From contig CAYPYS010000004.1 of the NCBI GenBank assembly GCA_964415355.1, forward strand, positions 27,220 to 91,219: a stretch of 64,000 bases of DNA. Reading direction: 5' to 3'. A program made the translations under genes and the position numbers. Shown here piece by piece: positions 36,095 to 60,923 of the stretch (position 1 is the stretch's first letter; every line of letters starts with the position of its first letter). The stretch is from an uncultured Planctomycetia bacterium. GTDB lineage: Bacteria > Omnitrophota > Gorgyraeia > Gorgyraeales > Gorgyraeaceae. The notes beneath the pieces are model-generated. The model saw nothing but the letters and a program-made list of their open reading frames with translations, did not search any database and was not told the DNA's origin.

Positions 36095-39000
36095 ATGTAC
36101 ACGCAGAATGAAAAACTGATACCGGTTTATATCGAAGATGAAATGAAGAATTCCTATCTTACTTACGCCATGAGCGTAATAGTAGGAAGGGCCCTGCCTG
36201 ATGTCAGGGATGGCTTAAAGCCGGTCCACAGGCGCATACTTTATGCCATGATGGACCTTGGCCTGGAGCATAATAAGCCGTATAAGAAATCAGCGAGAAT
36301 AGTCGGAGAAACTTTAGGTAAATACCATCCGCACGGGGATACTGCTGTTTATGATTCTCTTGTCAGGATGGTGCAGGATTTTTCTCTAAGGTATCCTTTG
36401 ATAGACGGCCAGGGTAACTTTGGCTCTGTTGATGGCGACGCCGCAGCGGCGATGCGCTACTGCGTCAGCGGGGATTCTCTTATAGTTACAGAAAAAGGAT
36501 TAGAGAGGATAGGAAAAATATCGCATCATTCGGAAGTTTCTTTTAAAACCTTATCCGCGAACAATAACATAAACCATGTTTCAGAATGGTTTGATTCAGG
36601 AAAGCACCCGACAAAAACAATAAAAACTTATAGAGGTCTTAGTTTGCGCGGAAGCCTTAACCACCCTATTCTCACCTGGCGGAAAGGGGAAAAAGGGAAG
36701 CCGCAGTTCGAGTGGGAATTATTAGGGAAGATTAAAGAAGGTGATTATGCCGTAATCAGCAGAAGCAGTTTATTGTTTCCAAGAAAAGACCCTTCTTTAA
36801 GATCTTATCATCCGCAATTAAAGAAGGCCTGTAAAGATCATAAGCTTCCTATGGCTATGAGTACAGACCTTGCTTTTCTTTTGGGGGCGATAGTCTCAGA
36901 AGGCAATGTTGGCAAAAAGCATATAGGTTTTTGTAACAACGACAGCATTTTCATCAAGAAATTTAAAGCGAGTTTTAAGAGAGTGTTCCCTGATTGCAGG
37001 CTTCACGAATTCGTTAGAAAACCCGCGGGCTACACAAGAAAAAGTTACACTTCTTTGGAAATCCACTCGCTTCATGTTTTGGAATTTTTGAGCAATCTTG
37101 GGTTAAAACCGAGCAGGGCAAAAGATAGAGTTGTGCCGGAAATAATATTTTCATCATCAAAGAAATCTGTTGCCTCTTTTATAAGAGGATATGCTGAAGG
37201 GGATGCCAGTGTATATATGTCCTCTTCTTTAAAGAATATAGAGATATCTTTTATATCGGCCAGCAAAAAGTTAATGCAAGAATTACAGGTTTTATTGTTA
37301 AGATTTGGTATAGATTCTTCTTATAGATGGCAAAGAACAAGAAGTATTTTTAAATTATTTATCCATGGGCACACAAATCTCGATATATTTAAAGACCAAA
37401 TAGATTTTATTACAGATAGAAAATGCAACAAACTGAGAGAGATTTGTAAAAGAAATGAAACCGGCTGGGTTATGTCAAAGACAGATTTTGTGCCATACAT
37501 TTCTGATTACATTAGAAGTAATGGATATGCAGAAAACAGGCAATGGCTTGAAAGGCATAATATTGATAGATATACAAAGATAGAGAAGCATTGGGGAAAC
37601 TTGCAAAAAATACTAAATGAAAAAGATAAACAGCTGTATCAAATGTTGATGGATAATAAATATATATTTGATCCCGTAGTTTCTGTAGAAGATACAGAAA
37701 CGAGCAAAGTTTATTCTATAAAGGTGGACAGCGCTTGTCATTCATTTGTGTCAAATGGCTTTATAAGCCATAACACAGAAGCGAGAATGGACGCCATAGC
37801 GGATGAGCTGCTCGACGACATAGAAAAAGATACGGTAGACTTTGTCCCGAATTTTGATGAGTCTTTGCAGGAGCCCAGTATATTGCCGGCGCGGCTGCCG
37901 AATCTTTTAATAAATGGTTCGAGCGGCATCGCAGTTGGCATGGCCACCAATGTCCCGCCGCACAACCTGACCGAGATAGTGGATGCTATTGTAAAAGTGA
38001 TCTCTGACCCGGACGTCTCCATAAAAGACCTGATGAAAATAGTGAAAGGTCCGGATTTCCCGACAGGCGGCATTATCTGCGGCAGGGACGGGATAAAAGA
38101 GGCGTATGAAAAAGGCAGGGGCAGGCTGAAGCTTCACGCAAAAGCAGCTATAGAACAACAAAAAGGAAACAAGGAATCCATTGTCATAACAGAGATCCCT
38201 TATCAGGTAAATAAATCAAAGCTCATAGAAAACATCGCTGATCTGGTGCAGGAGAAAAAGATCGAGGGCATATCAGACATAAGGGATGAGTCTGATAAAG
38301 AGGGTATGAGGATCGTCATAGATCTGAAGCGCGACCAGAATGCCCAGGTCATATTGAACCAGCTGTATAGACGCACGCAGATGGAGACTACCTTTGGCGT
38401 GATCACGCTAGCGCTTGTCGACGGGAAACCAAAGGTCTTAAATCTAAAAGAGGTCTTAGAGCAGTACATAAAACATAGAGAGGTGATAGTAAGGCGCAGG
38501 ACGCAGTTCGAGCTGGATAAAGCAGAGAGGCGCGCGCATATCTTAGAAGGTCTTAAGATCGCAGTGGACGCGATCAATAAAATCATAAAGACGATAAGGG
38601 AGTCAAAGGATGCCAAGATAGCAAAAGACAGATTGATGAAAAATTTTGACCTGAGCGATGTCCAGGCCCAGGCCATATTAGAGATGCAGCTCCAGAGGCT
38701 CACGGCGCTCGAAAGGAATAAAATAGAAAAGGAATACATGGAGCTGATCAAGAAGATAGAGATGTTCAAGTCTATTTTAAAGAGCGAGAAAAAGATTCTA
38801 GAGATCGTGAAGAACGAGGTCATGGAATTAAAGAAGGAATACGGTGATGAGCGCAGGACAGAGATCGTTGCAAAAGTAGAAGAGATGGAGATAGAAGATC
38901 TGATCGCAGAAGAGGACATGGTCATCACGATCAGCCACGCTGGTTACATAAAGCGATTGCCGATCGCAGCGTACAGGCGTCAGAAAAGGGGAGGCGTGGG

Positions 39001-39841
39001 CGTTACAGGCATTGACATGAAGGATGAAGATTTTGTCGAGCATTTATTCGTCGCCTCTACCCACGAATATATACTTGTATTCACGAATACAGGCAGGGTG
39101 CATTGGTTAAAAGTATATGAGATTCCTCAAGCGAGCCGCGCAGCCAGGGGCAAGGCAATAGTGAATCTGTTGCAGCTTGGCCAGGGCGAAAAGGTTTCTG
39201 CGTGCGTGAGGGTAAAGGATTTCGAAGAGGGCAAATTCCTCGTGATGGCGACAAAGAAAGGCCTGGTCAAAAAGACAGACCTGATGTCGTATTCGAATCC
39301 AAGAAAGGGCGGCATAATCGGCATTACCATTGAAAAAGACGACGAACTTATAGAGGTGAAGTGGACTGATGGCAAACAGGAGGTAATATTTGCCACCAAC
39401 CAGGGCAAGGCTATTCGTTTTCCAGAGGTTCAGGTCAGAGATATGGGCAGGGGCGCAAAAGGCGTCAGAGGGATAGGCCTCGGCAAAAAAGACGAAGTAA
39501 TAGCAATGGAGATCGCGAGAAAAGATGCGACAATTCTTACGGTTACATCGCAGGGGTTTGCGAAGCGCACGCCTGTCGAGCAATATAGAAAACAATCCCG
39601 CGGCGGCAAAGGCATAAAGAATGTAAGCGTAACAAAGAAAAACGGAGAAGCAGTAGGCCTTAAGATAGTCAATGATAAAGACGAGCTTATGGTCATGACC
39701 GAGAAAGGCATGATTGTCCGCTGCTCTGTTAAGGACATACGCACTACTGGCAGGGCTGCCCAGGGAGTTCGCATAATAAAGCTTGATTCAGGTGACAGGG
39801 TGTCAGCAATTGCCCGTGTTATCCCCGAAGAGACAGAGTAA
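36095..39841 (+). CDS. gyrA: DNA gyrase subunit A, intein-containing precursor (mature length about 810 aa)
   Basis: AAMRY active-site Tyr122 is followed by an inserted 438-aa element ending ...SHN|TEARM. The remainder is canonical GyrA including the C-terminal beta-pinwheel repeats. Confidence 0.95.
36461..37774 (+). mobile_element. GyrA intein with LAGLIDADG homing-endonuclease domain (438 aa, gyrA-a insertion site after the catalytic Tyr)
   Basis: Cys1 ([10 protein letters not shown]). Block B LNHPILT. Two LAGLIDADG-like motifs ([26 protein letters not shown]). C-terminal ...VSNGFISHN followed by +1 Thr. Confidence 0.85.
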
Positions 39842-39874
39842 CTTTACACTTTAACGTTGTTGAAATGTAAAGTT
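39840..39874. repeat. REP/MITE-like element, copy 3 (form B)
   Basis: AACTTTACACTTTAACGTTGTTGAAATGTAAAGTT. Overlaps the gyrA TAA stop. Confidence 0.9.
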
Positions 39875-39890
39875 AGGAGCTCATTTCTAC

Positions 39891-39968
39891 GTCCCCATCG
39901 TCTAGTCTGGCCTAGGACATCAGATTTTCGATCTGACGACACCGGTTCGAATCCGGTTGGGGACGCCA
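39891..39968 (+). tRNA. tRNA-Glu (anticodon UUC)
   Basis: Manual cloverleaf. Acceptor GTCCCCA/TGGGGAC. Anticodon stem TCAGA/TCTGA with loop TTTTCGA. T-arm ACCGG TTCGAAT CCGGT. Encoded CCA. Confidence 0.85.
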
Positions 39969-40110
39969 ATCTTTTAACCCTCTAAAATCCAACCAGTTAT
40001 ATCTTAAGTCTAATCAGAAGCAGGAATAGCGTTAATCGCCGATAGCATAGGCTACACATTTATTGTTTAGCTCTCTTTTGATGTGTTTAGATATTTTTAG
40101 ACGCGAAATG

Positions 40111-40127
40111 GTCACTATTTGGTCACT
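40111..40127 (+). repeat. GTCACTATTTGGTCACT direct-repeat motif, left copy (candidate arm-type recombinase site)
   Basis: An identical 17-mer recurs exactly 2100 bp downstream. Each copy contains GTCACT twice. Confidence 0.5.
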
Positions 40128-40310
40128 GGACGTTAGCCCCCCTGGCCTGTCTACATTATTTCAGTACTTAAACATCCATGGAATTTTAGCCATATGGACA
40201 CTTTTTGGACACCAAGACCTGTCTCTGGGAAAGAAGAATTAAACGCCACTTCCGTAACTTCTATAAATACATAGCATTATAAAAACTAATCTTCAAAATC
40301 TTACAGCCCG

Positions 40311-40337
40311 GACATCAGGCTAGATATCTGATGTCCA
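40311..40337. repeat. inverted repeat GGACATCAG-N9-CTGATGTCC built from the tRNA-Glu/att core sequence
   Basis: Its arms are identical to the first 9 nt of the 58-bp direct repeat. Confidence 0.5.
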
Positions 40338-40347
40338 GGATCTCCTT

Positions 40348-40376
40348 TGTGTATATCACAATAATATGATATAATT
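40348..40376 (+). promoter_or_regulatory. candidate promoter TTGTGT-17-TGaTATAAT for the islet MBL-fold gene
   Basis: Extended -10 at 40368-40376. Similar architecture to the promoter at 42428-42457. Confidence 0.35.
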
Positions 40377-40388
40377 ACTATATAAATA

Positions 40389-40444
40389 GACATTTAAGCA
40401 GCATAGCCTTGATAATAGGACAAGGCTATTTTTTTGGGTGGATT
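40389..40444 (+). promoter_or_regulatory. conserved leader with terminator-like hairpin (ATAGCCTTG-loop-CAAGGCTAT + T7), ending 8 nt before the ATG; copy A
   Basis: About 55 nt alignable with 42467-42525 (AATAGAyAT..AAG..ATAGCCTT..GGACAAGGCTATTTTTTTG-8nt-ATG). Confidence 0.4.
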
Positions 40445-42181
40445 ATGATAAAATGTGGAAAAGTAGCTATAATGGTTGTTGTAAGCACAGCCTTTTTATT
40501 TACAAGCACGCTGCATTCTAACATATCTGCAGATACCTTGCGCCTTGAAGTTGGTCAAGGGGACGATACATTAGGGCGAATGGAGAAACTTTTGAAAACA
40601 AGGACATACGCTTATCCTGCCGGTGGCTTTGATGTAAGAGTTCGCAATCCTAATAACAATTATTATAACACTTCTCAAGGAGCTGTTTCTGTCGGGTTAT
40701 CTATGCAACATAGGTTATTATATCCAGATGTTGCAGATTATCCCACCGTAATTATTGCACCTAACGGAGATTGGACCGGCAAAGACGGCACTAATTTAAT
40801 GCAGATTTATTTTGCCATAGCATGTAATTTCTTCTTTCACAAAAGAAATGGAGTGGATAATCCAAAAACCACAATTGTGTGTAGGGCTGACCAGAAAGAT
40901 AGGATAATTGAGTATTTAAAGCTAGGCAACCCTTATTATTTGCCTAATAAGGCTAATTACCCCGAAGAGTTGATTAAGAGATTTGAGCGGGAAGCTATCT
41001 ATTTAGCAGATAGGGCAGTTATAGATGGGCAAATGCAAATGGCGGCACCATATCCTGATATGGTTACATTTGAGACATTCGATGAGAATTTAAATGAAGC
41101 AAGCATTGGGGATGTAGTGATAACAGATAAAAGAAATGGTACGTTTGCAGTTAATGATAAAGGGGAAGCAGAAGGCATCTTGGATGGTAGAAACTTGACA
41201 GAGCTCGAGTTAGAACTAGTAGGCGTAGAGCCTCTTTCTGATATACCAGAATTAGGAGTCACGTTTTTAGGAACTAGCAGTGGGATGGATGCAAATGGAT
41301 TGAGTAGTAGCCAAATTGTATGGGCAGGCGACCATCAGGTATTAGTTGATTTAGGGATAGCTACTGTTGGTGGGCTTAGGGCATTAGGTTTAGCGCCTTC
41401 CGATATTAGTCATATAGCTATTACTCATATGCATGAAGATCATGTTGCAGGTGCATTGCAGTATTTCCATTGGTGTAAGAGTATCGGCCATCCAATTCGT
41501 TTAATAATTGAACCTGGCATCTATGAGTTGTTCAAGGAACAGGCAAAACAAATATTAAATAATGACTTAGAGTCTGTTTATGATGTCGAGCTTGTCCCAA
41601 TAAAATTTTATGCAGCTATTGAGCTAGGCAAAGGAAGTGAAAAAGTTACAATAGAAGCTATCCCTGGATTTCACGGTACACCAGTGATGATGAATCGCTA
41701 TACTTACAAAGGAAAAACAATTAGCCATTCTAGCGATACTACATTTGACCCAATTCGTTTTGATAAGATTTTAGAGAACGACATGCCCGATAATATAAGA
41801 AAAGACTTATCGAGAGAGCTCGGGGTTGATAAAAATGTTCGCGTGTTTAATAAAGCTAGAGCAGATGAGCTTGCAGGTGTATTATTTGGGAGCAATGCTA
41901 CTGGAAACATGCCGTCCATTGTTATTTATGAAGGGGGCAATGCTGCAGCCTTGGGAGAGAATGCAAGCAATCATACAACGCCTTTTGCCTTTCAGACATT
42001 GACAGAATATGAGCAGAGGACAATATGGGTGAATCATGCTGCCAAATTGCCTGGAGACCAAGAGTTTCTCGTTAAACATGCTGCCCCAATAAGTACCTTA
42101 GCAGTAGATCTTAGGGAACTTACTGTTCAAGATGTAAATGTTATGTTATCAAATACTAAGGAGCTGCAGAGAAGCCTGTAA
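40445..42181 (+). CDS. secreted metallo-beta-lactamase-fold protein with about 300-aa N-terminal domain of unknown function
   Basis: Signal peptide MIKCGKVAIMVVVSTAFLFTSTLHS. HxHxDH motif (ITHMHEDHVAGA). Start chosen at ATG 40445; the ORF track's TTG at 40409 lies within the leader hairpin. Confidence 0.6.
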   Translation: MIKCGKVAIMVVVSTAFLFTSTLHSNISADTLRLEVGQGDDTLGRMEKLLKTRTYAYPAGGFDVRVRNPNNNYYNTSQGAVSVGLSMQHRLLYPDVADYPTVIIAPNGDWTGKDGTNLMQIYFAIACNFFFHKRNGVDNPKTTIVCRADQKDRIIEYLKLGNPYYLPNKANYPEELIKRFEREAIYLADRAVIDGQMQMAAPYPDMVTFETFDENLNEASIGDVVITDKRNGTFAVNDKGEAEGILDGRNLTELELELVGVEPLSDIPELGVTFLGTSSGMDANGLSSSQIVWAGDHQVLVDLGIATVGGLRALGLAPSDISHIAITHMHEDHVAGALQYFHWCKSIGHPIRLIIEPGIYELFKEQAKQILNNDLESVYDVELVPIKFYAAIELGKGSEKVTIEAIPGFHGTPVMMNRYTYKGKTISHSSDTTFDPIRFDKILENDMPDNIRKDLSRELGVDKNVRVFNKARADELAGVLFGSNATGNMPSIVIYEGGNAAALGENASNHTTPFAFQTLTEYEQRTIWVNHAAKLPGDQEFLVKHAAPISTLAVDLRELTVQDVNVMLSNTKELQRSL

Positions 42182-42210
42182 TACGAGTTATTATTAAAGA
42201 ATTTTTACCA

Positions 42211-42227
42211 GTCACTATTTGGTCACT
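42211..42227 (+). repeat. GTCACTATTTGGTCACT direct-repeat motif, right copy
   Basis: Identical to 40111-40127. Lies 76 nt before the right-hand 58-bp repeat. Confidence 0.5.
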
Positions 42228-42302
42228 AGCGATAATCTCCAAAATCATTATTTCATATAACTCACTATAAAATAATAAGTTACAATAACACAATCTCGTA
42301 TA

Positions 42303-42356
42303 GACATCAGATTTTCGATCTGACGACACCGGTTCGAATCCGGTTGGGGACGCCAA
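42303..42356 (+). pseudogene. tRNA-Glu 3' fragment (displaced att repeat; 3' 53 nt of the tRNA, no 5' half)
   Basis: Identical to positions 39916-39968 of the intact tRNA-Glu. The upstream sequence is unrelated to the tRNA. Confidence 0.8.
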
Positions 42357-42375
42357 TCTTGCCAGCCCCATACTT

Positions 42376-42410
42376 AACTTTACACTTTAACGTTGTTGAA
42401 ATGTAAAGTT
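42376..42410. repeat. REP/MITE-like element, copy 4 (form B)
   Basis: Exact 35-mer flanked by TA. Confidence 0.9.
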
Positions 42411-42427
42411 AAGGGCTTATTTTTTGC

Positions 42428-42457
42428 TTGCCCAATACCCCGCTATTATGGTATAAT
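42428..42457 (+). promoter_or_regulatory. candidate promoter TTGCCC-18-TGgTATAAT for the giant ORF
   Basis: Extended -10 TGGTATAAT at 42449-42457. Predicted transcription start about 62 nt before the ATG, as for the islet gene. Confidence 0.35.
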
Positions 42458-42466
42458 TATCAACAA

Positions 42467-42525
42467 TAGATATAAGAACAATATAGCCTTTATATCAAGG
42501 ACAAGGCTATTTTTTTGCCTAGCTT
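42467..42525 (+). promoter_or_regulatory. conserved leader with terminator-like hairpin (ATAGCCTT-loop-AAGGCTAT + T7), ending 8 nt before the ATG; copy B
   Basis: Alignable with 40389-40444. Confidence 0.4.
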
Positions 42526-45500
42526 ATGTTAAACTTTAAAAAACTATTAACTTGTAAGATCGTATCAGCATTTTTGGCTCTAACATTATGCCTTACATCT
42601 ACATGCTATGGCATAGAGCTACCTAAAAGATCCCACCTAAGAGCCCCGATTATGGGGAATTCCGAAAAAGGCAGAGAAAGGCTAGAAGATACCCTATCTG
42701 TTGTTTCTGGGATAAAAGATGCGGCAGATGCGAAGATTATCAAGAAAGACATCAGGAAGATATTATTAATAAATGCTGCGCCTAGGGCAAAGGGGCTGGA
42801 TGTCCGGCCGCCTTTTTCTTTGTATGGCTTATACATGGTTTTAAAGAAAGAATTTGGCGACAGGGTAGAGATTAAAGTTTTGGATCTTGCTATACAAGAT
42901 GCGGATTTCAAGATAAAAGATTATCTTATTCAAGAAGGACCAGATCTCGTTGGGGTTTCGACCAGTTGTTCATTTTATGCTGGTTTTGCCGAAGAAATGT
43001 CAAGAGTGGCTAAAGAAGCTCTCCCTGAGACAGTGTTAGTTAATGGAGGCATTCATGCCTCAGTGGTGCCATTTGAGGTTGTCCAAGAGAGCCCGCTGGA
43101 TTTTCTTGTTCAGGGCGACGGAGAGATTGTTTTCCCTGAGGCATTAAGGGTCATCATGGATGGCGATGGCGATATAAGTAAAGTGGGGGGTATTTGGTAT
43201 ATAGATTCTAATGGTCAGCCAGCTAGCACCGGTAATCCTGTGTTCCCGTCCCTTGACGATTTACCATTGGGTGTCCCAGATATATTGGACGAGGTAATAG
43301 GGAAATACGATTTATCATCTCCTTATTTTGGAGGAGAAAAGGCCTGGCAGTTATTTTGCAGCCGCGGCTGCCCTGTGGGGTGTAAGTTCTGCGCTGTAGA
43401 GGCTATATCAGGTCAAAAAATCCGCGCGATGAGCCCTGAGAGGGTTGTTGCAGAAATAAAACATATTGTAAGAAGATATAATATACATAATTTTAATTTT
43501 ACCGACGACTTTTTCACATTCAATATAGAGCGGGCCAGAAAGATCAGCGAGCTAATTCTCCAGGATCAGGAACTTTCTAATGTGAAATGGAAGATCACCA
43601 CAAGGGCTGACAGGCTTCCTGAGGATTTGGTAGAGATCATGGCAAGGGCAGGCTTGATACATATTAGTTTTGGAATAGAGAGCCCAGATCCTACAGTTTT
43701 AAAAGCGATACAGAAGAGCGCATCAGTAGGTTCTTATAAAAAAGCCACAGCGTTAGCGCATAAATATGGGATAAGGGTAAGGCATCTTTTGATGGCGGGG
43801 TTGCCTGAGCAGGATGAGCAGAGCATTGATAAAACAATAGATTTTTTAGAAGAGGCTAGGCCTGATGAAATATTTGTCGCTATATATACACCTTTTCCCG
43901 GAAGCGAATATTCTAAAAACCCGGAGTTATACGGCTTTCTACCCACTCATATAAGTTATGAAGATATGATTATGAGGGAAGTTGTACAAGAAGGAGACAT
44001 TGTTAAGCCGGTCGTCGCTGTGCCAACAAGATGGATGACAGCCGAAGAAATTTTAAGAGCGCGAGACAAAATCGTCACGGCGTTTGAAGAAATACAGAAA
44101 AAGGATATCAGGGGTCTCTTGAAAAACTTAAGGAGTCCTGATATGGAGACCCGCAAGATAGCAGCGCGGAGATTGCGTTACGTTAGTAGCGCACAACCAA
44201 AAACGTGTGAAGATGTGCTTGAAGAAGCGTCCCAGGGTTTAGTGGAAAGATTTCGAGATAAAAACAGGTTGGTTCTCGCGCTGGCTGGCCCAGGGGCTTC
44301 TGGAAAATTTACATTATACGCAGAACGTTTTAAAGCTTTCTTCAGTAGGGCTCTTTCTGTAACGCCGGATTCCGTTGTTATGCTTACCGACAATAATTAC
44401 CTCCTGCCGATATCAGAACGAAGGGATTTAGATTACTTGAGCAAATTTGAGATAGATAGATGGTTTAAAAATATAAGACTTTTACAAGAAGGGGAGGCGA
44501 TTTATTCGCCGCTATACGACAGGCTCAGGAACGATCGTTTAAGGATAGATGAAGAGATTATTGCGGAAATACTACAGAACAGAGGGGGTGAGTTGCAAGA
44601 CGGGACAGAGCCTGTCTATAGATTTGAGATAGAGGGCATAGAGATGGAGGGCGAGGAACTGGAGGAGATATACATCGACATCAATCCCGCAAATAATAGT
44701 GTCCGGGGTGAATTTGACATTCTGGAGAAGATTGATCCAGAAGGAAAGATTATTGTTGTCAAGGCAACCATTTGCTTATTGGACCCAGAGATAAATGATG
44801 GATACGATGAGAGATTTTTCGTGCAGTCAGATTTCAGTACTAGATTGATTAGGGGCGTGAAGCGCTGGAGAAAAGGAATGGGCAGGCAGCCGAGAGAAGC
44901 TGAATACATAGATATTCTCAAAAAAAGGCGGGCTATAGAGGATGATCCATATATTCTCCCTACAAGGATGGCTGCCAGATTTGTGATAGAAAATAATATT
45001 ACAACCCTAGAGCTAGAAGAAGCGCTAAGGGACAGCAATCCAGAAGTACGACGAATAGCGAATGAATTATCGGCATCTATGTCATCGTTGCATGCCTCTG
45101 GCAAAACGTCTCCCAAGGAATCACGCAATATTTACAATCCTCTGGTATCCCTGCGCGAAAATCGCGACCTGGAAACTTTTATTGAAATATGGCTGACCAG
45201 GCGCTATGACTCTTGGGGGCTCCGCGAAGACTTAGCAAAAGATATACTAGAGACCCTTTTACGTTACGCAGAGGATCTGGAACAAGCCATAAATCGTTTA
45301 TATTCGGAGGTCATTGATTTTGAGACTGATGAGGCGTGGCAAGAAGCATATAGCCGCTATAAGGAAGAGGTGAAATACGCAGATACCTATAATCAGATGG
45401 ATGTATATCTCGGGGGCCTGCCGGATGACTCAGTCATTGTTGACGTTGGGGCCGGGAATAATATGCTAGGTAAACTAATCGCAACTAAGCACCCCGGTTT

Positions 45501-48500
45501 TTCTGTGATAGGGACGGATGCGTATGATTATCATGAAGAACATGGCCTTGAGAATCTTGTCTTTCTCGTTCAACCAAGGCCTTTAAATATCCCATTGGAC
45601 GATAGATCCGCGGATATCGTGATTATGAATGCGATGTTACATCATGTGTCTCCGGATGACATGGGGGCTTTTTTACAGGAAATTCGCAGAGTGCTTAAAC
45701 CGGGAGGAAAAGTGATTCTGGTCGAGGACACTTACTCAATAACCCTCCCAGTTGAAAATGAGGCAACTGATAGTGAACTAACCAGCGAATTCTTAGACCT
45801 AGTTCGAGAACATGGCGATGCATTTGCGAAGCAATTTTTTGTTTTTGATGATTGGTATAGTAATTTGGTGGTGCATAAATGGCTCGGCATGTCTGTTCCA
45901 TACAATTTCCATTCAATGGAAGAATGGCAGGAGATATTTCAGTCCCATGGATTTGAGTTGGCACATGCGCGTCATACTGGTTTTCCGCAGAGGTCATTTC
46001 ACAAGCCGAATGTCGGAGTTCTGTTGTTTACAAATACCCAGGGTATTGAGGCTGATGCGATTACAATGGCAGCAGAAGCTGTGGATGAGTTTTTGGGCAC
46101 AGGGGAGCAGTTTGCCAAGCTTGCGCAGAAATATCCTTACGTAATTAAGATTGCAACAGAGGCGCTAGATAGGTCTGCTGCTGAATTTGCCTACGGCCTG
46201 AAGATCCTGGGCTCTTCGCCTGGAGAATTGCGCAAAGGAGTTTTGGAACTCGATGCGCTTTTCGCAGAGAGTCTTGGTCTTTCTGAGCCAGACACAGTCG
46301 ATGCCCTTAGGGAGATCATGCAAGCGGTCTTTGATAAGGCAGATCCCAAAGATGGCTATTTCTTAAAAGAGGAAAAACTTCAGGAGCTCCTTTACGAGCA
46401 TCCTCCGTTGCAGTTGTTAAAAGATGCAGGAATGTCCCTGGATCAGGTAATCCAGGAATATGGGGTCTATGAGGTCTTCAGCGTTGTCAGGCTTACTGAG
46501 CCGCTTGAGCATCTCGAGAGACTCTTAGAGGCGTATAACGCGCTCACGCCAGAAGATTTTGAAAAAAGGCCTCTCAAGCTGTTCGCGTTTTCCAGAGACC
46601 GTTATCCGGCCGCGCTAAAGATACTTGATAAAAAATTGACGGTTTGCAACGATAAACTCGCAGGGACTGTTATAGCAGTTCCATATAGCCCGGACCATGA
46701 TGAGCAATACGCTGCGCGCACGCTTAGAATATTGGGGCGGACAGTACACTATCTTTATGAGGTAATGACGTATTCAGATTTTTATGAGTCGCTTGTCTTG
46801 CTGGACCGAGAACATTTTGGCGCGCGTCTGGCAGATGCGATGCGGGGATACGGCCATCTCTACGGCGACGACCTAACGCTTAAGTCATCTGTTGTGCCAT
46901 TTTTCCACCCGCATCATCTACAGGAGATCATGTGCTGGGAATCCAGCGTGGAGTTATTGCATGTGCTTGCTTCAGACATACCGGGGCTGGATGGAACTCT
47001 TGCGAAGTATCAGAATACGCTCAGGGCGCTGGAGTTTTTGTCAGGAGAACAAGAGGAGCGCCTTGTGTCATTGGGCCTCCTGGACCTGATCTCCATCGCC
47101 ACGAAATCCTATGACACCACATACCTTACTCGCGAGATGGTCCGCGCGGATATCTATGCGCGGGCTGTAGGCGACAAGGGAGAAGCCTACTTGCTTGTAA
47201 AGCACAATCTTGATAAATTTGACATAGCAGATCTTTTGTCGCCAGATTCTGTGCGCAATCCTGCAAATCCAGAAACGCAGATCTTTAAAGATGTTCTCAG
47301 GGCAGTAAAAGAAAAGGATTACGACTTTTTAAGAAAAACCATTCCTGCGCTTATGCAGATGATGGAAGAGGCTCTTAAAGAAGAAAATGAAAATGCTGCG
47401 CATGACATCTATACCCACCTGATATATTCTATACACGCGTTAGAGAGAAGAGATGGCAGAAAAGGGGTTGAAAGATTTCATGCCAGGGCCGCGGCTCTTC
47501 ATATAGAGTTAAGAGCTCTGGCTGAAAAAATAAGCGCATCTTCGGAGCCTGTCTCTATCGAAAGAATCAAAGAGCTTATCATCGAAAATTTTATAGGCGA
47601 GCGAGAGTTAAGCTATTGGTCTATAGCTGAAAAACTGGGGATCAAGACATTTTATGTTATGGAGGCAATGGATGCGCTTGCAAAGGAAGGAAGGCTTATT
47701 AAGAGAGAGACCGATGAGGCGATTACGTATATCTGGGCTATTTCCGGCGGGTCAGGGCAAGACCATGAACAGGAGGAAGTCAAGGGCTCTCCTCCGGCAG
47801 TATTTGGCGTGTTGTCTGATGGTAAGCCGCGCACCAAAGAAGAAATCGCCGCCGCATTGAACCGCGCTGTCCGCACGATCGAGCCGGATCTCTACTTTTT
47901 GCGCGACTCTATGCTGCTTGATATAGGCAAAAGGCAGGGGAAAAACACATACGCTGTTAAAGCAGGGTTACTTAAAGAGCAAGGACTGATAACGATAATA
48001 CAGGAGATCCTGGATAGGGAATTTCAACCCGGCAGCATAACGAAAAATCTCAGAAATAGAGACAGGAGAGAAAGAATCAAAGAAACAATATTAGATGAGA
48101 TTACATCTTTTGAAAGCCCGAATGTCCTGGGCGATTTGTTTTCCGAAGACAAGCAGGCGGTCTACGAGGTATTCAGCGACGAGAAAGAGCTGGGCGATAT
48201 AGCAGAGTCGAGCAGCAGTTATGTGAGCAGGGTCGAGGAGAAAAAGTTTTTTACGCCTGCGCCTTTAGAAGGGTTGGCGGAAAGACACATTATGTGGGAT
48301 TTTATCAGGAGCCCGTCAACTGATCTGACGCAGATAATAAAAAGACAGGATTTATTAGAGGCCCTGGAAAAATCAAGCTCATTGCAGCTTGCCACTGATC
48401 TGAAAAACAGGTCTTACCTTATTCATAAAGGCATCGAAGGGCTTTTTGCCCCGGTTGACGTGAGTGAATATCATCGGGAGCCGGCCTTATATGCATACAG

Positions 48501-51500
48501 GCACGGTCACGGCGATACGCATTATATAAGGCAGCATGTAATGGGATGTCTGGATAGTATAAAAGAGGGGAAAGATGCTTTAGGTGAACTTATCGAAACG
48601 CTCTCGGGCATAGATGCGGTAATTATTAAGGAAGTGGTCGGAGTCCTTGAAAAAGGCCTGGCGAGCGTCGAGTATTTGAATAATGATTATTTTCTTGATC
48701 AAGCATATGACGAGTGGGACGCCAAGCGTTTAAGCGGCGGACTTAATAATAATTTAATGCGCCTGGGCGCGATGATAGAATTCGCGAATATTATAGTGAA
48801 GGACGGATATTCTAGGGCTGATTTTCACGCTGACCAGGCTGCCGGATACAAAGGGGGCTGGAATTTTGTGAGAGAGAAAAAAGGCGATAAGCCGCAGTCT
48901 CTGAATGATTCACCAAAGGACACGCTTATAACTATCCTGTGCGGGGCGAATATGGGAGGAAAGTCCTTTCATCTCGCGCAGAATTTCTATATGCAGCTCC
49001 TGGCGCAGAGCTTCGGATACGTGCCTGCTAAAAAAGGCAACTTCAGGATATACGATTCATTTCTATATCTAGACAGGGCGTCTACAGAGTCTTATTATGA
49101 CCTGAGCGCCTATGGTGTTGATATCACGCACTGGGTGGCGGCATTGGAGAAGATGACGGGCAGGACATTTATGCTCGTCGACGAAGGCCTTTCTACCACT
49201 TCGGCAGAAGATCAGTATTATATGCTTATGGCCATAGCAGAATACCTTAAAGGCCGCGGCGGAAGGACGCTCCTGGCAACGCATAACGAGGCATTTATAA
49301 ATAATTACACGCAGGAGAAAGATGCGGGTATATATCATTTCCCATTTACGATCGAGGAAAAAGAAGACGACGGCAAAGAGATAAACTATTCTTATAAACT
49401 GACACAGGGCCCGGGTGATTCCAGGGCGCTGGATGTGGCAGAGGCGTTGGGCCTGCCCGAGGAATTGATAGAGCTGGCCGCGCAATATCTCCGAGACGCA
49501 GTTAAAGAGGTAAGGCCGCTGGTTGATTCTGAATGGAGAAATCCCGAGCGTTATACAGAAGAGGAGCGCCAGGCCTTAAAGAAACAAGGATACAGAACGA
49601 TTTTTGGCACAGAGAAGGAAGAAGAGGAAAAGGCATTTCAATTATTCAGCAAAGACCGTGAATTTCAGCATTCGTTTTTTACAGGGACTCACATTGAAAC
49701 AGGAGAGAGATTTGAGGATAGAAAGTTCGGAGGGTGGCGTTACGATGGCTCTATGCTGGGAGGCTCTTTGATCCTTCAGCTATTGACAGAGAATAAGAGG
49801 CTTGAGCCACAGGAGATCCTGGAGCGCCAGAGGATGTTCGGGGAATTGTCCGAGAATGACAGGTATGAAGAATTAAAAGACATAGGATATAAGCTTGTCT
49901 GGATGCTGGAATTTATACCTATGTATTATATGCTAACAGGCAACAGTGGATTTTTGGATTTTAACAGGGTATTAAAACCACAGAGCTCTGAGCTGCGTCC
50001 TGGCAACGAGCGCATGCTGAGCACGCTGGAATACTGCATTATGTTTCTGCGGATGAACCAGAAGATATTAGGCGAAGATTTCTCCGAGAGATTCACCGAA
50101 TTACTCAAGAGGCTTGAGAGAGGCAAAGAGCTTTTGCTCTCCTACGAAGAACATGTTGCGAATCAGGACATACTTGAGATACAGGCATTGCAAGCGGATG
50201 AGTATGACCGAGAGATAACCGACGAGGAAATAATCAGGGAGTATCTCGAGCTTGCCAGCGATGAACCTGACAGGGAAAAGTGGCAGGGCCGGCTGACGCG
50301 GCGCAGGATAAGAGAATATATGACGTGGCTCAAGGAACATGATAGAGAGAGATGGAGAGAGATAGAGTGGTGGCATTATGACGGGAACCATCCTCTGAGG
50401 GAGCTGATAAATAAAGTCATGCTGGGGTATAGTGCGATATCGGTTATGCATGATAGAGGAGGGGATTTTGACGCAGAGCAGGTAAGAGATGAATTTATTG
50501 CGCTCGCTGATGAAGAGCCGCTGGAGGCAAAGGAAAGGTGGGGGCACAGGATAACAGTCGGGAGGATCCAGGAATACCTGGATTTCCTACTGCAGAAGCA
50601 TGGTCACTATACGCGCGATGAGAATACAAAGGAAAAGATAAATACTGTCAATGATTTAAGGCATAATGTCTCTTCTACGCAGAGAGGGTTGGGCATCGAG
50701 GATAAAGAGATTCGCGCGATATTCGATTCTTTATTCGGCATAAAAGGCGATTACAATGACAGGGTGTTTGATGACAGGATATTTCGTTCCCTTACCGATC
50801 TTTTTCAGGCGTTTGAGCATATCAATAAAAAGATGCCTCCGAAGTCGATATTCGAATGCGATTTAGAATCTATCAAGGAAGAGATACGCTTTTTTGCGAG
50901 CTATTATAGAGAAAGATACAAAGAAGCAGATCTCGCGTATGACAGTAGATGGCCCAGGCCTCTGGTCCTTAGTTTTATTTTGGAGATGCTCGTGGAAGAG
51001 AAAGACTGGATCCGGGAATTTCTCGGCATATTAAGAAGCTATGACTCAGTGCATCTGCATCAGATGGCTGGTTCTCTCGAGGCAGGATTCAGGGATCTTC
51101 TATCAATAATCAAAGAAGACTGGTGGTTTAGAGAAAGCAAGGTGCTTTTTGGCTTTGAAGAAGAAACCCTGGTAGAGCTTATTAGAAATGATATAAAAGA
51201 GGCCAGGAGATATTTTAAAAGACAGAAAGAAAATATAGAGCCTTTATGTACAAGAGAGGAACTGGAGGCAATCGAGCTAGAATTAGAACAGGGTTCCAGC
51301 GAGAAATTGCTTAACCTGATCGACAGATTTAACGGCATGGGGCCCGAGGCATTGTATGAGATATTAAATTCAGTTTATGAAAGCCAGATGGAAGAGATGT
51401 TGCGTGATTACGCCGGTGTCTCGCGCGCATACAGCAGGATTTTTGCAGAGCACTATTTTCTGGGAAGCAGTGAAAGCGTCAAGTATATCAGGACTATCTT

Positions 51501-52758
51501 AAAAAGTCGGGGAACGACAGATTCTAGAAAGATACGCGATTTTGCCCAGAACTTTAGATGGCTTACCAACAGGGATTATGATGGCCGGTTGTTCCCCTAT
51601 CATGAGATCGAAAAGGACAAGTCAAAGAGGCAAAAGGAGGCAGAAAGCTTTAGGGTATTTTATCAGAGAGAGGTTATAGACACAGGCCTGATAGAGGAGA
51701 TAGAGGCAGCGTTAGGAGAGCTGGATGATGCATACAGGAAAGTAGAGGCCTTTGTCAGGAAATATAATATTAAATTCAAAGACCGCGAGGGCCGCAATGT
51801 AAATAAAGAGACGATGAAGAGAATCAGAAAAAATGGTGATCTGTATAGGCTCGAAGAGAAGGTATTTGGTATGTATGGAAATGCAATGTATTCGGTGCTT
51901 GATAGTTATAGCTTGCGAGATAAAGTGAAATCGCTTAATGGCGCCATATATGAGACCCAGGCCATTGCCCTTTTCGGTCACATGATAGCAACTCAGGGGT
52001 TTAATGCAGTGGATTTTAATTCAGACGGCTCAGTTGATATTAAGGGCATGTTCAGCATGTTCAAGCCCGGGTCTGAGCAGGAGCTGAATGACGTTCATTT
52101 TGGCGAGGATGAATACGCAAGGCTTATAGCTGCGCCAAATATGTCCGGTAAGACATTTTATCTAAAGGCGCTTGTAATGGCAATGCTCTCGGCGCTAAAT
52201 ACCGGATTTATCCCGGCAGAGTCTGCGACCATGCCGTTATTCGATTTCGTGATATATTTCGACAGGGTGACCGCAAAGCTGGACAGAAATCTGAGCGCAC
52301 TTGGAAACGAGGTCGAGCTATGGAAAAAGTTCTTTAATATCTTAAAAAGTGAAACGAGGGTCTTTGCCGCTGCTTGCGTTGACGAGGCGTTTTCTACTAC
52401 CTCTCCGGGGTATCAGGCGTCGCTTGTGTATGCGATAGTGATGGAGATGATAAGAAACGGCCAATACCTGGCAATCGCCACACACAATCATGATGTCCTG
52501 CAGGTCTTGAGGGAGCTGGAAAAGGATTTACTGAAGGCCTATACCCTGAAGATCCGCATCGATGAGGAAAGCGGCGGAGTAGATTTTAGCTATGAATTAG
52601 AGGAGCTCGAAGAAGGCGAGATGACATTTTCTGAGGCAATAGCAGTTGCCAGGACCCTGGGCATGCCTGAAGAGATCTTGCGTACGGCAGAGGAATTAAA
52701 GCTGAACGCAGAGGTCCAGTCACCTCTATACCACGTCGCACCCCAAACCGACCTCTAA
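42526..52758 (+). CDS. giant multidomain protein (3410 aa): N-terminal signal-like segment, B12-binding radical SAM, P-loop (uridine-kinase/PRK-like), class I SAM methyltransferase, long helical regions, two MutS-like (core + domain V ABC ATPase) modules
   Basis: Uninterrupted ORF. Radical SAM motif CSRGCPVGCKFC (aa 278-289). P-loop LALAGPGASGKFT and SPLYDRLRNDR. Methyltransferase motifs VIVDVGAGNNMLGK, ADIVIMNAMLHH, LKPGGKVILVED. First MutS-like module: GANMGGKS (aa 2140-2147), MLVDEGLSTTS, TLLATHN, GLPEELIELA. Second MutS-like module: APNMSGKT (aa 3203-3210), CVDEAFSTTS, AIATHN, GMPEEILRTAEEL. Confidence 0.8.
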   Translation: MLNFKKLLTCKIVSAFLALTLCLTSTCYGIELPKRSHLRAPIMGNSEKGRERLEDTLSVVSGIKDAADAKIIKKDIRKILLINAAPRAKGLDVRPPFSLYGLYMVLKKEFGDRVEIKVLDLAIQDADFKIKDYLIQEGPDLVGVSTSCSFYAGFAEEMSRVAKEALPETVLVNGGIHASVVPFEVVQESPLDFLVQGDGEIVFPEALRVIMDGDGDISKVGGIWYIDSNGQPASTGNPVFPSLDDLPLGVPDILDEVIGKYDLSSPYFGGEKAWQLFCSRGCPVGCKFCAVEAISGQKIRAMSPERVVAEIKHIVRRYNIHNFNFTDDFFTFNIERARKISELILQDQELSNVKWKITTRADRLPEDLVEIMARAGLIHISFGIESPDPTVLKAIQKSASVGSYKKATALAHKYGIRVRHLLMAGLPEQDEQSIDKTIDFLEEARPDEIFVAIYTPFPGSEYSKNPELYGFLPTHISYEDMIMREVVQEGDIVKPVVAVPTRWMTAEEILRARDKIVTAFEEIQKKDIRGLLKNLRSPDMETRKIAARRLRYVSSAQPKTCEDVLEEASQGLVERFRDKNRLVLALAGPGASGKFTLYAERFKAFFSRALSVTPDSVVMLTDNNYLLPISERRDLDYLSKFEIDRWFKNIRLLQEGEAIYSPLYDRLRNDRLRIDEEIIAEILQNRGGELQDGTEPVYRFEIEGIEMEGEELEEIYIDINPANNSVRGEFDILEKIDPEGKIIVVKATICLLDPEINDGYDERFFVQSDFSTRLIRGVKRWRKGMGRQPREAEYIDILKKRRAIEDDPYILPTRMAARFVIENNITTLELEEALRDSNPEVRRIANELSASMSSLHASGKTSPKESRNIYNPLVSLRENRDLETFIEIWLTRRYDSWGLREDLAKDILETLLRYAEDLEQAINRLYSEVIDFETDEAWQEAYSRYKEEVKYADTYNQMDVYLGGLPDDSVIVDVGAGNNMLGKLIATKHPGFSVIGTDAYDYHEEHGLENLVFLVQPRPLNIPLDDRSADIVIMNAMLHHVSPDDMGAFLQEIRRVLKPGGKVILVEDTYSITLPVENEATDSELTSEFLDLVREHGDAFAKQFFVFDDWYSNLVVHKWLGMSVPYNFHSMEEWQEIFQSHGFELAHARHTGFPQRSFHKPNVGVLLFTNTQGIEADAITMAAEAVDEFLGTGEQFAKLAQKYPYVIKIATEALDRSAAEFAYGLKILGSSPGELRKGVLELDALFAESLGLSEPDTVDALREIMQAVFDKADPKDGYFLKEEKLQELLYEHPPLQLLKDAGMSLDQVIQEYGVYEVFSVVRLTEPLEHLERLLEAYNALTPEDFEKRPLKLFAFSRDRYPAALKILDKKLTVCNDKLAGTVIAVPYSPDHDEQYAARTLRILGRTVHYLYEVMTYSDFYESLVLLDREHFGARLADAMRGYGHLYGDDLTLKSSVVPFFHPHHLQEIMCWESSVELLHVLASDIPGLDGTLAKYQNTLRALEFLSGEQEERLVSLGLLDLISIATKSYDTTYLTREMVRADIYARAVGDKGEAYLLVKHNLDKFDIADLLSPDSVRNPANPETQIFKDVLRAVKEKDYDFLRKTIPALMQMMEEALKEENENAAHDIYTHLIYSIHALERRDGRKGVERFHARAAALHIELRALAEKISASSEPVSIERIKELIIENFIGERELSYWSIAEKLGIKTFYVMEAMDALAKEGRLIKRETDEAITYIWAISGGSGQDHEQEEVKGSPPAVFGVLSDGKPRTKEEIAAALNRAVRTIEPDLYFLRDSMLLDIGKRQGKNTYAVKAGLLKEQGLITIIQEILDREFQPGSITKNLRNRDRRERIKETILDEITSFESPNVLGDLFSEDKQAVYEVFSDEKELGDIAESSSSYVSRVEEKKFFTPAPLEGLAERHIMWDFIRSPSTDLTQIIKRQDLLEALEKSSSLQLATDLKNRSYLIHKGIEGLFAPVDVSEYHREPALYAYRHGHGDTHYIRQHVMGCLDSIKEGKDALGELIETLSGIDAVIIKEVVGVLEKGLASVEYLNNDYFLDQAYDEWDAKRLSGGLNNNLMRLGAMIEFANIIVKDGYSRADFHADQAAGYKGGWNFVREKKGDKPQSLNDSPKDTLITILCGANMGGKSFHLAQNFYMQLLAQSFGYVPAKKGNFRIYDSFLYLDRASTESYYDLSAYGVDITHWVAALEKMTGRTFMLVDEGLSTTSAEDQYYMLMAIAEYLKGRGGRTLLATHNEAFINNYTQEKDAGIYHFPFTIEEKEDDGKEINYSYKLTQGPGDSRALDVAEALGLPEELIELAAQYLRDAVKEVRPLVDSEWRNPERYTEEERQALKKQGYRTIFGTEKEEEEKAFQLFSKDREFQHSFFTGTHIETGERFEDRKFGGWRYDGSMLGGSLILQLLTENKRLEPQEILERQRMFGELSENDRYEELKDIGYKLVWMLEFIPMYYMLTGNSGFLDFNRVLKPQSSELRPGNERMLSTLEYCIMFLRMNQKILGEDFSERFTELLKRLERGKELLLSYEEHVANQDILEIQALQADEYDREITDEEIIREYLELASDEPDREKWQGRLTRRRIREYMTWLKEHDRERWREIEWWHYDGNHPLRELINKVMLGYSAISVMHDRGGDFDAEQVRDEFIALADEEPLEAKERWGHRITVGRIQEYLDFLLQKHGHYTRDENTKEKINTVNDLRHNVSSTQRGLGIEDKEIRAIFDSLFGIKGDYNDRVFDDRIFRSLTDLFQAFEHINKKMPPKSIFECDLESIKEEIRFFASYYRERYKEADLAYDSRWPRPLVLSFILEMLVEEKDWIREFLGILRSYDSVHLHQMAGSLEAGFRDLLSIIKEDWWFRESKVLFGFEEETLVELIRNDIKEARRYFKRQKENIEPLCTREELEAIELELEQGSSEKLLNLIDRFNGMGPEALYEILNSVYESQMEEMLRDYAGVSRAYSRIFAEHYFLGSSESVKYIRTILKSRGTTDSRKIRDFAQNFRWLTNRDYDGRLFPYHEIEKDKSKRQKEAESFRVFYQREVIDTGLIEEIEAALGELDDAYRKVEAFVRKYNIKFKDREGRNVNKETMKRIRKNGDLYRLEEKVFGMYGNAMYSVLDSYSLRDKVKSLNGAIYETQAIALFGHMIATQGFNAVDFNSDGSVDIKGMFSMFKPGSEQELNDVHFGEDEYARLIAAPNMSGKTFYLKALVMAMLSALNTGFIPAESATMPLFDFVIYFDRVTAKLDRNLSALGNEVELWKKFFNILKSETRVFAAACVDEAFSTTSPGYQASLVYAIVMEMIRNGQYLAIATHNHDVLQVLRELEKDLLKAYTLKIRIDEESGGVDFSYELEELEEGEMTFSEAIAVARTLGMPEEILRTAEELKLNAEVQSPLYHVAPQTDL

Positions 52759-54970: not shown

Positions 54971-54999
54971 TTTACAAAATGTTAGCAAGCTTGTATAAT
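54971..54999 (+). promoter_or_regulatory. consensus sigma70-like promoter TTTACA-17-TGtATAAT for hisG, apparently leaderless
   Basis: -35 TTTACA at 54971-54976. Extended -10 TGTATAAT at 54992-54999. ATG at 55009. Same geometry as the dnaA promoter. Confidence 0.4.
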
Positions 55000-60849: not shown

Positions 60850-60923
60850 TGGGACGTCGTCCAATGGTAGGACGCAAGATTTTGGATCTTGTTATTGTGG
60901 TTCGAATCCACACGTCCCAGCCA
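60850..60923 (+). tRNA. tRNA-Gln (anticodon UUG)
   Basis: Manual cloverleaf. Acceptor TGGGACG/CGTCCCA. D-arm GTCC AATGGTA GGAC. Anticodon stem CAAGA/TCTTG with loop TTTTGGA. T-arm TGTGG TTCGAAT CCACA. CCA encoded. Confidence 0.8.

Follow-up and report, generated by a model that had tools for sequence, protein, structure and literature searches.

An integrase-less islet at the tRNA-Glu(UUC) gene of an Omnitrophota genome is probably a site-specifically integrated, non-autonomous cassette

The tRNA-Glu(UUC) gene that follows gyrA in an uncultured Omnitrophota bacterium is itself followed by a small islet, at positions 39974-42360 of the 64-kb stretch of contig CAYPYS010000004.1 that we analysed (the window), and this islet is probably a site-specifically integrated, non-autonomous cassette. 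The order of features is gyrA (which contains an intein and ends at 39841), a 37-nucleotide (nt) palindrome, the tRNA gene at 39891-39968, 470 nt free of genes, a gene for a 578-aa protein at 40445-42181, 120 nt, a partial tRNA, a second copy of the 37-nt palindrome and a gene for a protein of 3410 aa. The dnaA-dnaN-dciA-gyrB-gyrA genes adjoin this region and the slot is origin-proximal. Omnitrophota are uncultured, often host-associated bacteria, and the nearest named relative of the 578-aa protein also comes from Candidatus Omnitrophota. The related contigs that we fetched for comparison, blocks of 8 kb or short contigs, are labelled here by numbers with the prefix L.

ARAGORN and Rfam (60.5 bits) agree with a preliminary description of the locus in placing an intact tRNA-Glu(UUC) gene with an encoded CCA at 39891-39968 on the + strand; this gene would be the integration target. 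The direct repeat of 58 nt that had been described there runs from the anticodon stem to the CCA and on through ATCTT, and its two copies, attL at 39916-39973 and attR at 42303-42360 (both +), are identical at 58 of 58 positions. The tRNA copies bracket 2.33 kb, and the 25 nt of the tRNA 3' end occur at only two places in the window. The attR copy lacks the 5' parts of the acceptor and the D-arm and so is no gene; ARAGORN makes no call there, and its Rfam score of 31.2 bits is owed to unrelated upstream sequence that has been aligned in. The anticodon arm of the intact tRNA, GGACATCAGA-TTTTCGA-TCTGACGACA (39915-39941, +), has the pattern CATCAG-N9-CTGACG and is the presumed core-type site.

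Inside the islet the 17-mer GTCACTATTTGGTCACT occurs at 40111 and 42211, exactly as had been described, and at no other place in the window when up to three mismatches are allowed; the copies are 2100 nt apart and shuffled sequences predict 0.06 copies. We add a third, variant pair at 40196. A looser arm pattern has three matches in the 64 kb, all of them inside the islet and on the + strand (shuffles predict 0.96 for both strands), and the matches to a loose core pattern are confined to the same 2.5-kb stretch; neither the arm nor the core patterns matched anything in a further 20 kb of flank on either side. The first pair, GGTCACT-ATTT-GGTCACT (40110-40127, +), consists of two 7-mers 11 nt apart, begins 194 nt after the start of the core and has the same motif in the left ends of L039, L016, L023, L021 and L040. 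It is separated from attL by a left-end spacer (39974-40109, +) that shows weak similarity to 'type A' left ends when aligned with L016, L023, L034 and L041.

The second pair, GGACACTTTTTGGACAC (40196-40212), opens a stretch that resembles a right-end module (40196-40309, +), continues for about 97 nt that contain TATAAAAAC, and has homologues at 1603-1716 in L034 (113 nt) and 1482-1569 in L013. This stretch leads into an unstranded palindromic core, GGACATCAG-GCTAGATAT-CTGATGTCC, in which the left half-site of the tRNA anticodon arm is present twice, as inverted copies; from the start of the second pair to the GACATCAG at this core is 115 nt. The inverted repeat had been noticed before, and it is both real and conserved in relatives, with coordinates of 40310-40336 in place of 40311-40337. 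Because the palindrome sits at the core position after a right-module-like stretch, we read the islet as two units: a gene-less unit 1 (39974-40336) and a unit 2 (40337-42360) that carries a gene with a metallo-beta-lactamase (MBL) fold. That cargo gene (40445-42181, +; 578 aa) is preceded by a leader at 40403-40444 (+) consisting of a hairpin (ATAGCCTTG/CAAGGCTAT), a T-run, GGGTGGATT and the ATG, and it is followed by a right-end module of exactly 93 nt (42210-42302, +) in which the third pair, AGTCACTATTTGGTCACT, is succeeded by AGCGATAA, CAAAAT and TATAAAATAATAAGTTACA.

Seven partial tRNAs (those of the window, L013, L014, L019, L025, L027 and L040) are each preceded by a common module that opens abruptly at (C)TAGTCACTATTTGGNCACT; upstream of this point the cargo is unrelated between loci, and the paired repeat AGTCACTATTTGGNCACT stands exactly 93 nt before the partial tRNA in all seven. 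The module of the window aligns without gaps with six other tRNA-type and two palindrome-type modules (nhmmer E = 9e-18), and pairwise identity among right modules is 62-92%, which is at or above that of the 3' coding sequence of gyrA in the same pairs of genomes (70-79%). A profile made from the module finds further copies, all on the tRNA strand, one of which closes an AbiE islet in L039 before a decayed partial tRNA (about 45/53) while another closes a four-gene unit in L034. The module closes islets with unrelated cargo in at least eight genomes, and the 93-nt spacing is found in at least ten modules. Left ends are of at least two types, the distance from the start of the core to the arm pair being 125 nt in type B, 158 nt in type A and 194 nt in the window. 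All of the arm motifs are on the tRNA strand and none is on the opposite strand. A separate feature of the right modules of L014 (about 2355-2392), L027 (about 2225-2262) and L040 (about 1735-1772; all in oriented coordinates) is a near-consensus promoter, TTG(T/C)A(A/C)-N17-TATAAT, which lies about 10 nt before the partial tRNA and faces it and the downstream host gene; in the window it is degenerate.

We searched 284 kb of loci with the core pattern C[AG]TCAG-N9-CTGA[CT]G. It fits the tRNA anticodon arm and, outside tRNAs, has five further occurrences where about 0.1 would be expected by our own arithmetic; a slightly degenerate sixth palindromic core is found near position 6121 of L034. In these cores one half of the anticodon arm, either the left (GGACATCAG) or the right (TGTCGTCAG), is present as inverted copies that form the half-sites. 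The distance from arm pair to palindromic core is 93 nt in L022 (601 to 694) and at two places in L034 (1464 to 1557 and about 6028 to 6121), 113-115 nt in the window (40196 to 40311) and L034 (1603 to 1716), and 25 nt in L021 and L022. The palindrome appears to be a second kind of core, one that takes the place of the partial tRNA after a right module. In L034, at about 6121-6175 (oriented), a GTCAC-type right module with its palindromic core has AGTGTGCCAAAAGTGTGCCA in the 20 nt that come next; this arm type belongs to the L009 islet family described below, so that one array contains two arm families.

Exact-match scans with the 3' part of the tRNA returned 12 metagenome loci and 17 genome loci, all Omnitrophota-like. 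The gyrA-tRNA-Glu synteny is conserved across these approximately 29 loci, with a gyrA-tRNA spacer that varies from about 5 to about 110 nt, and the sequence after the tRNA is hypervariable. The tRNA is followed by hisG in L029 and L030 and by the phosphoenolpyruvate carboxykinase gene in L020 and L031; these four are empty sites, comparison with which had been suggested in the preliminary description. Elsewhere it is followed by a GIY-YIG gene and a giant gene (L018), GmrSD (L016), an MmeI-like methylase (L023), AbiE and Schlafen (L015), LexA with an AlwI restriction-modification system (L024), a lipase (L022), AbiE (L039) or other secreted proteins (L025 and L033). Empty sites, together with islets of unrelated cargo that have a common right end, bear out the earlier reading of the 58-nt repeat as the footprint of an integration event. 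The islet appears to belong to a phylum-wide family of cassettes that fill the origin-proximal slot with secreted proteins and defence genes.

Turnover at this slot seems to be recent. L019, L021, L023 and L037 have gyrA genes that are 98.8-99.8% identical and yet they display three different arrangements after the tRNA, which points to three states within one species; L019, L021, L023 and L013 come from one population (JGI Ga0222666, Ga0222667, Ga0222697 and Ga0207996). In L040 and L013 a right module and partial tRNA are joined to the left end of another element, and L040 comes from a single-cell genome whose intact tRNA sits on L034; these junctions look like tandem accretion, and that of L013 is possibly a circle (an attP junction). 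Extension of the single-cell contig behind L034 showed a 524-aa protein to be the product of a conserved backbone radical-SAM gene, and the contig ends 180 nt later. A third family of left ends is found at the same tRNA in L015 (about 1340-1860) and L035 (about 200-760; both oriented), where two copies of TTTTGGTGGTGA are followed by a conserved open reading frame (ORF) of 150 aa that has no Pfam match; the cargo that comes next is of the defence type, with AbiE and Schlafen-like genes as well as Eco57I or type I restriction-modification genes.

In lambda-type attP sites the core is flanked by arm-type sites that are bound by the N-terminal domain of the integrase. The sole meaningful viral match of the 17-mer in IMG/VR is L006, an unrelated viral contig of a high-GC host, in which two identical copies of the 16/17-mer flank a tRNA 3' fragment and one of these copies is separated by 5 nt from the end of a 431-aa Phage_integrase gene (7e-32). 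The arms of L006 are about 100 and 107 nt from the expected anticodon loop, and those of a reconstructed Omnitrophota type B site are at 105 and 113 nt. We read the pairs of the islet as putative arm sites because of the conserved start of the module, the 93-nt spacing, the tRNA orientation and this parallel, all of which favour the earlier proposal that the 17-mers serve as arm-type recombinase sites; GGTCACTATTTGGTCACT would then be the integrase arm sequence. AGTCACTAT may resemble the lambda arm consensus; the arm sequence itself was not found in a literature search. L006 is good indirect support for the pairs being arm-type sites of a lambda-like integrase whose crossover lies in the anticodon loop, and this position is also suggested by the 5' limit of the identity block, which falls at the junction of the D-stem and the anticodon stem. 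The closest phage relatives of the L006 integrase are those of D3/PMG1 (43% identity), and the annotated attP region of these phages does not show the motif.

No tyrosine recombinase was detected in the window or at any tRNA-Glu(UUC) locus by phmmer with the L006 integrase or by Pfam searches of about 70 island ORFs. A custom hidden Markov model built from four tyrosine-recombinase seeds and run against all six-frame segments of all loci found only a 55-aa remnant in L009. The non-coding parts of the window yielded no integrase remnant on six-frame translation, the window and its 20-kb flanks have no recombinase, and none of 14 element ends that were inspected abuts an integrase gene. The absence of an integrase that had been described for the window is thus seen at every related locus examined. 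We also queried IMG/VR for a helper element or its attP with the 53-nt tRNA part, the 17-mer, a degenerate 16-mer, both left-end motifs and the palindromic core, and only L006 was relevant; other matches were in coding sequence or due to chance. An integrase accompanied by an attP with matching arm sites, for which the preliminary description had proposed a search, was not found at the related loci.

Our findings are consistent with the following probable history. The islet would have been made by site-specific recombination of the tyrosine-recombinase type at the anticodon arm of tRNA-Glu(UUC). A circular DNA would have carried an attP composed of an arm pair, 93 nt, a tRNA-derived core that extends from the anticodon stem to the CCA, and a left end with one or more arm pairs. 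Recombination between this attP and the chromosomal tRNA would regenerate an intact tRNA at attL and leave the displaced partial tRNA behind the right module at attR. The inserted DNA would consist of the gene-less unit 1, which ends in a palindromic core of the same half-site, and of unit 2 with its one self-promoted gene, for a putatively secreted metallo-hydrolase of the RNase Z/Apyc1 type. Neither an integrase nor an excisionase is encoded in the islet, and excision or transfer would be expected only when a cognate integrase is supplied in trans, from a helper element or from elsewhere in the chromosome. The junction of the excised circle should read ...CACAATCTCGTATA followed by the 58-mer and TTAACCCTCTAAAATCC, and that of the emptied site GTCTGGCCTAG followed by GACATCAG...CCAATCTT and GCCAGCCCCATACTTAAC.

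Several observations weigh against this account. The 9-nt spacer is different in every palindromic core, and because of this simple recombination among the palindromic cores, or with the tRNA loop, does not seem to explain them. The left arm pairs are absent from L025, L027 and L019. Right modules and partial tRNAs are visibly decayed in some relatives, and since the partial tRNAs range from perfect to about 85% identity the integrated copies decay and many of them are fossils. The cognate integrase was not found anywhere that we searched, so mobilisation in trans stays a proposal; the fetched loci are short, and for some of them an integrase may lie deeper inside a large element. Finally, no empty site or variant was found in the window's own species among the DciA-bearing contigs, all of which were identical. 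Positions 36095-43507 are 100% identical in contigs from at least ten samples, and the islet is fixed in the clonal population sampled; the source metagenomes are ENA SUTE22-1 (SAMN10231893-914) and JGI 3300009373-5, 3300009128 and 3300009008. Contigs that end at the 58-nt repeat, L100 included, were rejected as signs of polymorphism because a repeat of such length would by itself break contigs; L098 ends in the 37-nt palindrome and not in the 58-nt repeat.

The preliminary description left two choices for the lack of an integrase, a decayed element or a small satellite mobilised in trans, and our data narrow that choice and do not settle it. It is possible, if distinctly less likely than the account given above, that the islet is an inert fossil: an integrase-bearing element would have integrated and then lost its integrase and most other genes by deletion to leave an immobile scar with one useful gene, and the conservation of the end modules would reflect recent arrival from a mobile pool and not selection in place. 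The partial tRNAs of relatives do form a decay series (58/58, 53/53, 52/53, about 46/53 in L025 and about 45/53 in L039), with the window at its pristine end, and the arm pairs of L039 and of L034 at 6028 are degenerate. L019 carries an IS3 fragment, the MBL gene of L009 occupies the place of the body of an integrase of which the C-terminal 55 aa remain, and the islet of the window is fixed and invariant in its population. The difficulty is that independent and complete loss of the integrase, leaving no remnant, would be needed in more than ten islets, including those with perfect att sites. Several islets, moreover, are just 1.6-2.3 kb in length with both ends intact (the window, L025, L027 and L039), and the slot turns over within a species at 99% gyrA identity. 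Should the islets be no more than fossils, what we describe is the footprint of an ordinary island, though an unusually clean one.

An unlikely alternative is that site-specific recombination is not at work today and that cargo is swapped between strains by DNA uptake and homologous recombination, with homology arms provided on the left by the tRNA and on the right by the module and partial tRNA, which together span about 150 nt. Conserved flanks around wholly unrelated cargo, with sharp boundaries, would be expected from such an exchange, as would the lack of a recombinase gene and the location of the hotspot between conserved backbone genes. It leaves the origin of the partial tRNA and the module unaccounted for, along with the strict spacing of 93 nt, the presence at both ends of arm pairs that keep to one strand, the palindromic cores and the parallel with L006, and the 62-92% identity of modules between species is low for efficient homologous recombination.

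It is more doubtful still that the GTCAC pairs are operators for a transcription factor, similar to a Pho box in that two 7-mers are set 11 nt apart and a -10-like hexamer lies 12 nt downstream. A conserved (C/A)AAAAT is indeed found 12 nt after the pair in right modules, core-less pairs precede genes in L027 (1434) and L040 (3165), and the modules of L014, L027 and L040 also have an outward TTGTAA-N17-TATAAT. Against this, the pairs are tied at fixed distances to partial tRNAs or palindromic cores, and the same sequence flanks a tRNA fragment beside an integrase in the high-GC viral contig L006; the two functions could also coexist. An ancient partial duplication of the tRNA, or a dispersed repeat unconnected with mobile DNA, has nothing beyond the repeat itself in its favour and is so improbable that we reject it: the repeat is perfect, has only two copies in the 64 kb and is found in public contigs only as the tRNA or after a right module, every partial copy in 29 other loci is preceded by the same 93-nt module, and empty sites exist. 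We likewise rejected transposon ends, all of the repeats being direct and terminal inverted repeats being absent, and an oriT or iteron origin, the palindrome being positionally interchangeable with the tRNA core.

Elements of several known kinds resemble the integrated cassette that we propose. A cis-mobilizable element (CIME) is one that has kept its att sites and lost its integration genes (PMC5704250), and by this published definition the islet is a CIME, or at least CIME-like. Like the CIMEs of streptococcal islands of ICEs (integrative and conjugative elements) and IMEs (integrative and mobilizable elements), it has attL and attR at the 3' part of a tRNA gene and lacks integrase and transfer genes; tandem arrangement with other elements at the same site is also shared (here in L040 and L013), and in both cases movement is expected only with the recombinase of another element. 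Unlike them, it has no known ICE or IME relative or conjugation context and no remnant of lost genes, its integrase is lacking in all of the relatives seen here and not just occasionally, and it has the additional palindromic cores and gene-less units. As regards derivation by deletion, the window has no remnant, while the MBL islet of L009 retains an excisionase-like ORF and the C-terminal remnant of an integrase.

The tycheposons of Prochlorococcus encode a recombinase of the tyrosine (or serine) type, in many cases together with a replication module (10.1101/2020.12.28.424599). Their tRNA-linked islands are alike in that a small, streamlined genome has a tRNA-proximal island formed by repeated integration, with partial tRNAs between successive elements, degenerate remnants, and niche and defence cargo (10.1101/2020.12.28.424599). 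The islet differs in having a partial tRNA but no recombinase or replication genes, and in end modules that are strongly conserved and strictly spaced. The arrangement of its direct-repeat arms at fixed distances on both sides of a core recalls the attP of lambda, as does the 16-mer beside a real integrase in L006, but no int or xis gene adjoins the arms of the islet. Integration at an anticodon-loop sublocation of tRNA genes is said to have been described by Williams in 2002, and the identity block of the islet, from anticodon stem to 3' end, is of this kind. The pseudo-SCC elements of staphylococci are cassettes similar to the staphylococcal cassette chromosome (SCC) that lack ccr, the serine recombinase genes, and lie at the end of rlmH/orfX; they too are recombinase-less, bounded by direct repeats, stacked at one entry point and mobilisable in trans, but they depend on serine recombinases, use another target and have no arm-type sites.

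Integron cassettes offer a further comparison. They also are small units of one or a few genes that line up head to tail, all in one orientation, at a fixed entry point of the chromosome, with the recombinase encoded outside the cassette. Each integron cassette ends in a recombination site with a palindromic core, to which the unit ends at tRNA-Glu(UUC), a module plus a palindromic or tRNA-derived core, may correspond. The array at tRNA-Glu(UUC) differs in having no adjoining IntI, attI or Pc (in the window and its 20-kb flanks), in sites that are not attC-like in sequence and consist of lambda-like arm repeats and a tRNA-derived core, and in cassettes that carry their own promoter-like sequences and leaders. 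We raise, as a speculation that we consider rather improbable at present, that Omnitrophota possess an origin-proximal gene-capture platform at this tRNA that is integron-like and uses lambda-type sites. Small integrase-less cassettes with secreted effectors or defence genes, each ending in a strictly spaced module of arm and core, would be inserted and stacked by a recombinase encoded elsewhere, possibly a domesticated chromosomal one, and the cores would be of two interchangeable kinds, one tRNA-derived and one palindromic with its own spacers. If a recombinase moves the cassettes in trans, this would be a second way of capturing genes in the manner of integrons. The family goes beyond what is known in that no member seen has a recombinase, in its conserved module with strict spacing, and in its palindromic cores and gene-less units.

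The locus is an entry point that is defined by sequence: a single tRNA, a conserved module of 93 nt and a defined core, which mark the place near the replication origin where secreted proteins, neighbours of giant genes and defence systems are swapped. The mobility of Omnitrophota genomes has been remarked on in recent preprints (10.64898/2026.05.20.726742; 10.64898/2026.06.07.730766, with 176 complete genomes). The right module is a search key both for cargo and for the missing enzyme in complete genomes.

The sole gene of the islet encodes a secreted-type protein with an MBL fold, as had been proposed: the 578-aa product has a signal-peptide-like N-terminus and an HxHxDH motif and matches Pfam Lactamase_B at 2.4e-09. 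An N-terminal domain of about 270 aa that is of no known kind is joined to a C-terminal MBL fold of the RNase Z/Apyc1 kind, with matches to Apyc1 in PDB (3.5e-09) and to RNase Z in NCBIfam (3.5e-14, which is under the family cut-off). The family has only six clusters. One homologue is encoded just after tRNA-Leu(CAA) in L007 and another lies in an islet at tRNA-Glu(CUC) that has a 28-nt att repeat (L009, 452-4117; also L008 and L010). At each end this last islet has tandem arm repeats (GTGTGCCA/AAAGTGTGCCA), and it contains an excisionase-like ORF of the HTH_17 kind, a MauJ-like gene and, directly after the MBL gene and overlapping its stop codon, the 55-aa remnant of an integrase C-terminus; most of the integrase gene seems to have given way to the MBL gene. 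Cargo of this family is accordingly carried by islets of a similar sort at other tRNAs. In L012 a direct repeat of 99 nt (12133-12231 and 13044-13142; 82%) corresponds to the 5' end of prfB, including its programmed frameshift site, and brackets a toxin-antitoxin-like module of a 93-aa protein and a PIN protein, with an MBL homologue and an ORF6N gene just upstream; it looks like an integration footprint at the 5' end of prfB.

The leader of the cargo gene, with its hairpin, T-run and GGGTGGATT, is also found before the giant gene (42484-42525) and before first genes after tRNAs in L007 (430-455), L019 (about 2700-2740), L025 and L033. The shared layout is a G+C hairpin, five to seven T residues, about 10 nt (often GGGTGGATT) and the ATG, and the products begin with a signal peptide that is followed by an N-terminal [ED]TLR[VL] motif. 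Secreted or giant proteins of this lineage may have in the leader an attenuator and sorting signal of their own. The cargo beside the right module of L014 (1-1750) has long overlapping frames on both strands, as in G+C-rich DNA; a batch of ORFs that included three from L014 gave RlaP-like and R2K ATP-grasp matches, which were not assigned to individual members.

The 37-nt palindrome TAACTTTACACTTTAACGTTGTTGAAATGTAAAGTTA that flanks the structure had been described as a repetitive extragenic palindrome (REP) at 39840 and 42376; both copies are present, with starts at 39839 and 42375. They were rejected as part of the islet, there being 12 copies of this dispersed host element in the window (33505, 36035, 39839, 42375, 52780, 54909, 56004, 58440, 59450, 60805, 62206 and 63219). 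Most lie directly at gene ends, where the TAA of the palindrome is the stop codon, and in a related species a palindrome with identical ends and a different middle is found at the corresponding place after gyrA; these are probably REPs of a terminator-like family. The preliminary description had suggested gyrA-REP-tRNA-REP-giant gene as the ancestral arrangement. In the window hisG is at 54979 and, compared with L029 and L030, the whole 15 kb from the islet through the giant gene and phoU/Na-Pi genes lies in the variable slot; the deeper order was probably gyrA-tRNA-Glu-hisG, with the giant gene also in the variable slot.

The giant gene (42526-52758, 3410 aa) encodes a fusion of a B12-binding radical SAM protein with a methyltransferase and MutS domain V. 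In L029 and L030 hisG comes directly after the tRNA; by comparison with them the giant gene falls within the variable slot that separates tRNA-Glu from hisG (54979), and so do the opposite-strand phoU/Na-Pi genes. Motif patterns and the right-module profile detected no att remnant after the giant gene, and an extension of 10 kb on each side of the window contained only housekeeping and glycan genes. A second tRNA gene in the window, tRNA-Gln(UUG) at 60850-60923, has a REP copy just upstream (60805) and no arm or core motifs nearby. The gyrA gene (36095-39841) encodes 1248 aa, a length due to an intein whose homing-endonuclease domain is of the LAGLIDADG type (Pfam LAGLIDADG_3 and Intein_splicing); a long gyrA is also present in L025, L032 and L041, and in most other relatives its product is 809 aa in length.

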